From the IMG/VR virus record IMGVR_UViG_2711768058_000002, positions 1 through 16,617 of that record: 16,617 nucleotides of DNA. One strand, given 5' to 3'. The DNA comes from a virus. Lineage: Duplodnaviria > Heunggongvirae > Uroviricota > Caudoviricetes. Below are positions 1-1,152 of this stretch, one piece after another (positions within the stretch are counted from its first letter, which is position 1; the number at the start of each line of letters is the position of its first letter). The notes under the pieces are model-generated. The model was not told where the DNA came from. It saw only the letters and a list, made by a program, of their open reading frames with translations, and searched no databases. A program made the position numbers and the translations under genes.

Positions 1-234
1 CGGTGGTGTCTGCTCCTGCTCCCCGGCTCGCCAGACCGCGGTCACACCGTGTATCACGGGATTACCGTCCGTGTCCGTCAGCGGGGTTTTGTTCACCAGG
101 ATACTCTGCAGTCCCTTCACCGGGCCTTCCACCGGTCCCTCTCCAATCGCATCAATCACGCTCATCATCTGTGTGGATTTGAGATTATCCTTTGCCTCAA
201 CCGGCGTGTGCCCCTTGCCGCCACCTTTGCCCAT
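1..234 (-). CDS. J: Tail tip / host-specificity protein J, N-terminal 78 codons only; the gene continues beyond the window start
   Basis: Minus-strand ATG at 232-234 with AGGAG about 7 nt upstream. Translation MGKGGGKGHTPVEAKDNLKSTQMMSVIDAIGEGPVEGPVKGLQSILVNKTPL... matches the lambda gpJ N-terminus as I recall it (MGKGSSKGHTPREAKDNLKSTQLLSVIDAISEGPIEGPV...). Open to position 1. Confidence 0.85.
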   Translation of the reverse strand, partial: MGKGGGKGHTPVEAKDNLKSTQMMSVIDAIGEGPVEGPVKGLQSILVNKTPLTDTDGNPVIHGVTAVWRAGEQEQTPP

Positions 235-235
235 T
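128..235. repeat. Direct repeat copy 1 (108 bp) covering the J start codon and first ~35 codons
   Basis: Plus-strand 128-235 is identical to 1045-1152 except one mismatch (ctgtgtgg versus ctgcgtgg), by eye alignment of the two stretches. Confidence 0.9.
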
Positions 236-247
236 CACTCGCTCCTG

Positions 248-276
248 AAACGACAAAATCGCCCGAAGGCGATTTT
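248..276 (-). terminator. Putative rho-independent terminator downstream of the moron ORF
   Basis: On the minus strand, a 9-bp stem AAAATCGCC / GGCGATTTT with a 4-nt loop, followed by GTCGTTT. It sits between the moron stop (396) and the J ribosome-binding site. Confidence 0.5.
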
Positions 277-395
277 AATTAGCTGAATAACCGCATATCA
301 TTCCGGTAATAATTACGTCAAAAACTGCACAGTTTTCCTGTACAGTCATCACATAAGATGATGACCACACATGAATGAAATGAACATCAACGATA

Positions 396-914
396 TTATT
401 TACTTTTCCTGTGTGTTTTTTTAATTAAAACACCATTTTTATAGGTAACAGAACAAAATTTCTCATCAAATTTATCCAGCGGTGGAGGACCATCAGGAAA
501 AAAAGTCTGTAATTGTGCAGCTGTCTTAACAGGCCCATACTCACTCAAACCGAATCCTATCGCCTCAGGAGACATTTCACTTAACACCTCATCCATATAA
601 CCTTTAATATACACATCAGGAATCAGTCGGGATAAACGGCAAACAAAACTCCCACCACCACCATAAGCGGAAAAACATGAAACAAGCCTTATGTAATGTA
701 TGCTTTTTAAATCCACTACGGTCTTAAGCCAGTCATGCAGCATGCCCGGACTATAAAGAGCATCACCAACGTAAAGCCCTCCCTGACCACTTTTATACGG
801 ACTGCCATGAACATCAATATTTAACCTGACATGACCTTTATGCATCTGCTTATATATCGTCAGAGGTGAGCGCGTGTGAAATATGAATTTTATATCAGTC
901 ATTGGTTTTTTCAT
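396..914 (-). CDS. Hypothetical protein, 172 aa, AT-rich moron ORF; no family recognised with confidence, possibly a Cys/His hydrolase
   Basis: Uninterrupted ORF in DNA far more AT-rich than the flanking phage genes (about 40% GC in the ORF and about 25% in its flanks by eye count, against a GC-rich backbone). A stop-free run of this length in AT-rich DNA is unlikely by chance. ATG at 912-914 (MKKPMTDIKF...) with a weak AAAGAGA ribosome-binding site; the track's TTG start at 953 and the ATG at 902 are alternatives. No signal peptide or transmembrane segment is apparent. Motifs: VRLNIDV-H37-G, GLYVGD, IRLVS-C80-FSAYGGGG. Confidence 0.6.
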   Translation of the reverse strand: MKKPMTDIKFIFHTRSPLTIYKQMHKGHVRLNIDVHGSPYKSGQGGLYVGDALYSPGMLHDWLKTVVDLKSIHYIRLVSCFSAYGGGGSFVCRLSRLIPDVYIKGYMDEVLSEMSPEAIGFGLSEYGPVKTAAQLQTFFPDGPPPLDKFDEKFCSVTYKNGVLIKKTHRKSK

Positions 915-953
915 GACATTAATTTCTCTTTGTTTTAATAAATAACACCCCAA

Positions 954-1028
954 ATATTGACATTAAGCTTCTTATTATATCCCACAACCATTCAGCGGCT
1001 GATTACACAATGCGATATAATTTTATAA
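954..1028 (-). promoter_or_regulatory. AT-rich putative promoter region for the moron ORF
   Basis: About 20-25% GC. On the minus strand a TATAAT hexamer corresponds to plus 974-979, with TTGTGG/TTGTGT-like hexamers upstream at non-optimal spacing. The exact -35 and start site cannot be assigned from sequence. Confidence 0.3.
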
Positions 1029-1151
1029 TTATTTTTCAGGACCATCCACCGGTCCCTCTCCAATCGCATCAATCACGCTCATCATCTGCGTGGATTTGAG
1101 ATTATCCTTTGCCTCAACCGGCGTGTGCCCCTTGCCGCCACCTTTGCCCAT
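1029..1151 (-). pseudogene. Truncated duplicate of the J 5' end (J'), 40 codons then a stop
   Basis: Minus-strand ATG at 1149-1151. Translation MGKGGGKGHTPVEAKDNLKSTQMMSVIDAIGEGPVDGPEK* matches the real J N-terminus for about 35 codons, then diverges at the repeat boundary and ends at TAA. Confidence 0.65.
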
Positions 1152-1152
1152 T
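1045..1152. repeat. Direct repeat copy 2 (108 bp), partner of 128-235
   Basis: See copy 1; 107/108 identical, same orientation. Confidence 0.9.

Follow-up and report, generated by a model that had tools for sequence, protein, structure and literature searches.

Morons, and the scars left at mosaic joints in lambdoid phages, were reportedly described in 2000 by Juhala and co-workers (J Mol Biol 299:27) and by Hendrix and co-workers (Trends Microbiol 8:504). In the moron model, new DNA enters by non-homologous recombination, and sloppy joints are tolerated as long as the essential genes stay intact. The junction between the tail genes I and J of phage lambda (NC_001416, 15445-15504) is compact and carries no cargo: I ends in ...VVVIGR and a stop, only 60 bp lie between the two genes, and a hairpin and a Shine-Dalgarno (SD) sequence stand directly 5' of J. 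Here we analyse the corresponding junction in a 16,617-nt stretch of viral DNA (IMG/VR record IMGVR_UViG_2711768058_000002, positions 1 to 16,617; hereafter the window), which is the late region of a lambdoid Escherichia coli prophage. The real J of the window has a hairpin and an SD directly 5' of it, as in lambda; unlike in lambda, a 233-bp spacer unit, a truncated second start of J (J') and a cargo gene have been added between I and J, and the cargo is bracketed by a 108-nt direct repeat of the J 5' end. We conclude, with a probability of about 0.75, that a single unequal, illegitimate crossover, in which the two lambdoid partners had dissimilar I-J junctions, left this repeat behind as its scar. 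The features on which the argument rests are as follows.

1385 to 2032, minus strand: tail assembly gene I, with the C-terminus ...VVVIGRQG and a stop (Pfam Lambda_tail_I, E=3.8e-13; RefSeq annotation of relatives).
1152 to 1384, no strand assigned: 233-bp 'A-type' I-J spacer unit between I and J', whose 3' end holds the SD of J'; also found in the insert-free prophages L003 and L040.
1045 to 1152, minus strand: upstream copy of the direct repeat, comprising nucleotide -1 and codons 1-36 of J (107/108 identical to 128-235).
1029 to 1151, minus strand: J' open reading frame (ORF), 40 codons and a stop, a truncated J pseudogene fragment (RefSeq label 'incomplete; missing C-terminus').
1029 to 1044, minus strand: joint region, the J' tail TGGTCCTGAAAAATAA, from alignments a probable remnant of the donor phage's I terminus.
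915 to 1028, minus strand: AT-rich region (30-33% GC) 5' of the cargo gene, with a TATAAT; also in the copy on plasmid pMDL26.
396 to 914, minus strand: cargo (moron) gene; its product of 172 aa has a His36/Cys80 dyad and is predicted to adopt a clan-CD cysteine-protease fold (profile search, alignment, AlphaFold).
318 to 347, minus strand: predicted terminator-like hairpin with a U tract, 3' of the cargo gene (fold z = -3.0).
236 to 276, minus strand: lambda-type I-J spacer remnant, consisting of the hairpin 255-276 (AAAATCGCCTTCGGGCGATTTT) and the SD CAGGAG (243-248), 5' of the real J; homologous to lambda 15445-15504.
128 to 235, minus strand: downstream copy of the direct repeat, which opens the real J (107/108 identical to 1045-1152).
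1 to 234, minus strand: real tail-tip gene J, of which the window covers the first 78 codons; it starts with an ATG at 234 and exits the window's left end (full-length gpJ of relatives, 1128-1134 aa).

The two copies of the repeat align without a gap, the sole mismatch being T172 against C1089 on the plus strand; extended with mismatches, the repeat covers 122-240 and 1039-1157 (119 nt, 96%), with 917 bp from start to start. Near-identity over 108 nt within 16.6 kb cannot be a product of chance. The initial annotation had proposed such a repeat, and re-alignment bore it out, just as ORF reading confirmed that J' is a 40-codon upstream fragment and that the real J is the downstream copy. J' reads MGKGGGKGH...GEGPVDGPEK, from the ATG at 1151 to the stop at 1029-1031, but only the first 36 of its 40 codons are those of J, and it encodes no tail-tip protein of about 1130 aa with fibronectin type III (FNIII) and immunoglobulin (Ig) domains. 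Two further statements had to be corrected. The ribosome-entry region of J was thought to be duplicated as well; however, the repeat opens only 1 nt 5' of the ATG, so that the ribosome-binding regions lie outside it, and the SD regions differ accordingly (aaagggtgagacaATG for J', caggagcgagtgaATG for J). The stop of J', placed exactly at the end of the repeat, in fact follows the last base of the perfect repeat at a distance of 13-16 nt, and 115 nt separate it from the cargo ATG. Thirteen complete E. coli genomes, besides additional contigs from drafts and metagenomes, show the same arrangement. Because these genomes were assembled independently and the lineages differ in sequence, the idea that the start of J was doubled by faulty assembly or scaffolding is refuted.

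The sequences that precede the two copies are of different types. J' is preceded by the 233-bp A-type unit with its own SD, whereas the lambda-type hairpin and SD, with homologues in many lambda-like phages, stand before the real J. As the 60 bp of lambda hold the homologous hairpin and SD, the sequence 5' of the real J can be identified as a native lambda-type spacer. The A-type spacer is absent from lambda, and it stands without any insert between I and J in the E. coli prophages L003 and L040. Comparison of the I-J junctions of relatives, as the initial annotation had suggested, thus yielded insert-free forms that lack exactly the 917-bp unit. Between J' and J lies a unique segment of 809 bp, AT-rich (27-47% GC versus 55-65% in the flanks), in which a single ORF (396-914) is followed by the hairpins at 318-347 and 255-276 and by the SD of J. 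The earlier reading of the repeat as a recombination scar therefore holds in so far as a moron-like cassette is bracketed; its other part, insertion of the cassette into the start of J, gives way to an unequal crossover between partners with different I-J spacers.

The plasmid pMDL26 (L005) provides the most informative comparison. It matches the whole unique segment at 85% identity, and on the 3' side the homology continues through the hairpin, the SD and the ATG. Immediately 5' of its copy stands ...GGTGGTGAAGGGAAGGTGGTGGTTATCGGTCGTTAA, identical at 29 of 32 positions to the 3' end of I in the window and constituting a lambda-type I terminus: it encodes I-G-R-stop as GGT CGT TAA, where lambda has GGT CGC TGA at the same position. 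Insertion sequence (IS) elements then cut both sides. pMDL26 is thus the fossil of a lambda-type phage with the order I-cargo-hairpin-J and without J', and the remaining non-phage copies of the cargo share only the gene and about 25 nt on either side. The one-crossover model is favoured because in pMDL26 a lambda-type I abuts the cargo, with hairpin, SD and ATG downstream.

The joint itself can be read in the light of this fragment. The J part of J' runs to ...CCGGTGGA and is followed by TGGTCCTGAAA(A/T)AATAATT. In a +T allele, in which the J' ORF has 49 codons instead of the 40 of the window, the J' tail aligns with ...GGTCGTTAAATGATAATT of pMDL26 without a gap (28/32), so the most plausible reading of the tail is that it preserves the final codons of I from the donor. 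No J allele that encodes the tail of J' (GPVDGPEK) was found in IMG/VR. Directly before the joint, the end of the donor I and codons 31-37 of J are identical at 15 of 17 positions (TGGTGAAGGGnnGGTGG), and on the strength of this alignment the patch may have assisted pairing in a misaligned crossover.

We therefore propose the following course of events. Parent A would have carried an I ending in ...IGRQG and a stop, the 233-bp spacer unit and J; parent B would have carried a lambda-type I (...IGR and a stop), the hairpin, the SD and J, with the AT-rich cargo already lying between the I stop and the hairpin. A crossover between about codon 37 of J in parent A and the final two or three codons of I in parent B would have joined the left arm of A, including a useless 36-codon stub of J (now J'), to the right arm of B, which supplied the cargo, the hairpin and SD, and an intact J. 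The distal end of the repeat would then be the joint, and its proximal end would be the place where the A-type and lambda-type spacers cease to be homologous, at the start codon of J. The arrangement would have arisen once and then moved to other phage backgrounds by homologous recombination, some of the crossovers falling inside J'. Recombination between J' and J would excise the 917-bp unit; the outcome would be a viable phage with the A-type order I-spacer-J, and phages of this form do exist.

Several observations weigh against this reconstruction. Between the 16-nt tail of J' and the I terminus of pMDL26 there are substitutions and a gap of 5-6 nt, and the joint is not placeable to the nucleotide. 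No intact I-cargo-hairpin-J phage without J' was found in the phages collection, IMG/VR, the GTDB representatives or metagenomes, where a scan for the cargo returned only plasmid-like contexts; the first three were equally empty when searched for any phage-database copy. The sole witness of parent B is therefore a plasmid fragment that IS elements have truncated and in which 40 nt of I are left. In addition, a scan of the minus strand over 915-1031 found no consensus sigma-70 promoter for the cargo, although a TATAAT is present there (TGATATAAT in the pMDL26 allele). The polarity might also be the reverse, with J'-cargo-J as the primary form, produced by tandem duplication of the J 5' end and capture of the cargo between the copies, and with the I-cargo junction of pMDL26 as a secondary deletion. 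The 15/17 patch between the 3' end of I and codons 31-37 of J could mediate such a deletion, and the single truncated witness would suit it. Nevertheless, we consider this order of events unlikely: it leaves unexplained why the real J has a lambda-type hairpin and SD when J' has an A-type spacer, and, with these bases derived from the J' tail, the I stop of pMDL26 would fall at the exact lambda position by coincidence.

A single crossover, rather than recurrent insertion, is also what the distribution of the joint indicates. The joint is identical, CCGGTGGA followed by TGGT(C/T)CTGAAA, in all 19 phage-context loci that were read, which come from complete genomes, drafts and a single metagenome contig, and so is the 917-bp spacing; this points to a single origin. 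Both are kept even though the cargo has diverged between lineages by up to about 4% (synonymous divergence, dS, 0.08). The 917-bp unit could instead be regarded as a mobile circle, integrated at the 5' end of J through one crossover of the Campbell type, or as a transposon with an unusually long target duplication. A circle with 108 nt of J homology would indeed produce exactly the observed order of homology, cargo and homology, and recombination between J' and J could release it again. This explanation is distinctly unlikely, as the unit contains neither a recombinase nor a transposase and has no terminal inverted repeats; its single ORF has no transposase domain, and the repeat of 108 nt is far from a target-site duplication of 2-14 bp. 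One invariant joint in 19 of 19 loci argues against repeated insertion, the upstream side of the plasmid copy is I sequence and not J', the segment from the cargo to J is a native lambda-type spacer, and the IS66 label carried by the cargo is spurious (see below).

Under the one-crossover reading, the close similarity of the two copies in the window calls for a separate explanation. Within single genomes J' and J differ at 0-15 of 108 positions (1 in the window, 9 in ES5, 11 in SHP24). In SHP24 (L025, ~2411-2570), J' begins with GTG, its 5' half differs, and the I-J spacer before it is of a third type, but the joint between J' and cargo is the same, which is evidence of a crossover inside J' with another phage type. 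The A-type allele of STEC2018-607 (L040/L041) is matched in the window by J' with about 95 nt of spacer and likewise by the opening ~200 nt of J. In that strain the shared patch of ~0.4 kb, reaching from the latter half of the spacer ~200 nt into J, is near-identical and the insert is precisely absent, whereas outside the patch the two sequences are only ~91-92% identical; the patch is a sharp mosaic segment centred on the start of J. STEC2018-607 was considered as a deletion product and rejected on account of this low identity outside the patch. Because both J' and J of the window match one allele, their 107/108 identity is a secondary, lineage-specific state, and it does not prove that the duplication is recent. 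Evidence for concerted evolution was weak (n=9): on average, J' and J showed 4.8 differences per 108 within a genome versus 6.4 between genomes.

These data also bear on the possibility that the repeat is kept for a function, J' serving as a decoy or coupling ORF for the cargo or J, or the pair as a programmed on/off deletion switch. J' retains an SD and an ATG within the late operon, and 108 bp is a repeat length sufficient for deletion by RecA or Red; the two copies are identical in some lineages (108/108 in L032). In several other lineages, however, they have drifted to 90% identity or less. The start of J' is GTG in SHP24 and deleted in two prophage remnants, L007 (E. coli LZHX12, 2888-3013) and L033 (~2130-2250), which have suffered large deletions and retain the cargo and J with a J' truncated at its 5' end. 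Since the length of the J' peptide is not conserved (40 versus 49 codons), and since its start and presence vary and it ends well before the cargo ATG, the translational decoy that the initial annotation had envisaged finds no support. As for a switch, no near-isogenic insert-free sibling was seen among 5,426 complete genomes: in a search with the 2.1 kb studied here, twelve insert-bearing genomes cover the full query at 95.4-99.4% identity, the closest being E. coli JMF1 (99.4%), and the top insert-free match reaches 95.4%. Frequent loss of the cassette is thus not suggested by the population data, and we hold maintenance of the repeat for a function to be very unlikely.

The two remnants are independent, and the right endpoints of their deletions coincide at the start of J'; one deletion fuses early genes (the hokD region), the other the major capsid gene, to the first bases of J'. 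The real J is a pseudogene in several carriers or relatives (L022, L024 and L003), through an internal stop (O157:H16 Res13), a frameshift (ST866) and a truncation (FHI_NMBU_11). The cargo ORF is intact in every locus whose coding sequence was read. This suggests that the cargo outlives the infectivity of the phage, and the gene is under purifying selection (ratio of nonsynonymous to synonymous substitution, dN/dS, 0.13-0.36).

The product of the cargo gene has been named 'IS66 family insertion sequence element accessory protein TnpB' in RefSeq (WP_224433092.1, WP_244583212.1 and others), in many genomes and plasmids. We rejected this identity, because the protein has no IS66, Pfam or NCBIfam match and its context is a phage tail operon; the label is probably a propagated mis-annotation. 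Sequence searches of Pfam, NCBIfam (for both, none at E<=1), PHROGs, PADLOC and PDB gave no match at all. By contrast, an exhaustive profile search recovered 56 cluster representatives with the motifs KG..RL....HG and R...C.S..G...S...KG, including remote matches at the extreme C-terminus of two RHS-repeat proteins, P0036 (1722 aa, match 1556-1672, E 7e-6) and P0050 (1640 aa, match 1490-1603, E 4e-4). AlphaFold returned a predicted local distance difference test score (pLDDT) of 93.4 with a 31-sequence alignment and of 45 with nine close homologues. Among the 31 homologues, H36-G37 is conserved in at least 90% and C80 in 100%, and both follow predicted strands, in keeping with clan CD peptidases, whose catalytic His (mostly His-Gly) precedes the catalytic Cys, each behind a beta-strand. 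The predicted alpha/beta fold, like that of caspases and of the cysteine protease domain (CPD), the invariant Cys80 and the near-invariant His36-Gly37 are the grounds on which the cargo is most likely a small clan-CD cysteine protease, resembling the CPD of MARTX and TcdA and acting as an effector or toxin. The closest known systems for the fold are the clan CD C80 domains of MARTX/RtxA and of TcdA/TcdB of Clostridioides difficile, together with the type VI secretion system (T6SS) effector Tce1 of Pseudomonas aeruginosa (PDB 9qpe). The cargo differs from them in being a free-standing protein of 172 aa, without a toxin body and without a match at the sequence level; our claim is therefore that it is predicted to work like these proteins, not that it is a member of C80.

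Homologues at about 86% identity are found on large E. coli plasmids, a Salmonella plasmid and metagenome contigs. On one metagenome contig (L008), a homologue of 74% identity stands just after the T6SS genes tssM, clpV and tssA, and on a Salmonella plasmid (L009) a homologue of 84% identity adjoins an AvrPphF-ORF2 gene and hha; these neighbours fit an effector theme. On IncF-type plasmids (L006, 4614-4979; L019, 3589-3954) the homologue is followed by a conserved ORF of 121 aa, which, to judge from its position, could encode a partner or immunity protein. The phage cassette lacks it and has no second ORF.

The A-type spacer deserves a comment of its own. It has convergent terminator-like hairpins (1193-1216 on the minus strand, 1356-1371 on the plus strand) and folds better than shuffled sequences (z -3.9 and -3.2), and in E. 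coli 05-3629 (L004, 2255-3051) four diverged copies stand in tandem between I and J. It may encode one or more prophage small RNAs (sRNAs). A search of 200-1450 against Rfam, at gathering and at permissive thresholds, gave no credible match, so the spacer is no catalogued sRNA; the anti-sRNAs AgvB and AsxR were rejected as its identity, as they are located at the moron site at PR' (PMC4104026).

In the rest of the window every gene likewise lies on the minus strand, in the order Rz, terminase, lambda-family portal, ClpP-capsid fusion, tail tube, tape measure, L, K, I and the start of J. The fusion is one ORF of 723 aa (9582-11753, minus strand) that joins a ClpP-like prohead protease to the major capsid protein; it is annotated alike in relatives and is ordinary for such a head module.

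What the locus means can be stated at two levels. First, it is a readable case of the entry and spread of a moron, in which both parental junctions, the joint, the homology patch and the later exchanges are visible. Second, a mis-annotation is corrected, and in place of IS66 TnpB a conserved, selected family with a predicted clan-CD fold can be flagged. The family is modestly new; it is distributed over E. coli prophages, large plasmids, a Salmonella plasmid, a T6SS-adjacent metagenome contig and Rhs C-termini, and this distribution makes the cargo a candidate virulence or competition factor. A bolder proposal would be that the J'/J pair acts as a portable homology bracket and a reversible switch, by which the cargo hops between lambdoid phages with unrelated I-J spacers and is shed measurably through recombination between J' and J, giving heterogeneous lysogens, and that the cargo founds a new family of small clan-CD protease effectors, with members in phages, on virulence plasmids, at T6SS-adjacent loci and in Rhs toxins; taken as a whole, we regard this as rather unlikely.

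Compared with known systems, the scar is of an ordinary, well-known kind, and the repeat is no new mechanism. Like a moron, the cargo is extra DNA between genes that are adjacent in relatives (lambda, L003 and L040 have I and then J), is AT-rich and has its own predicted terminator (318-347). Unlike at a classic moron, the joint leaves behind 108 nt of the essential gene downstream, as an in-frame stub, and the cargo is for this reason bracketed by long direct repeats; moreover, the likely donor arrangement, I-cargo-J, survives as a plasmid fragment. The sRNA morons of E. coli lambdoid prophages lie at PR' (Tree et al. 2014, PMC4104026). The exchangeable effector loci of lambdoid prophages are likewise accessory genes of the late region that are probably useful to the lysogen, but the cargo of the window sits neither downstream of the tail fibres, nor at PR', but at the I-J junction inside the tail operon.

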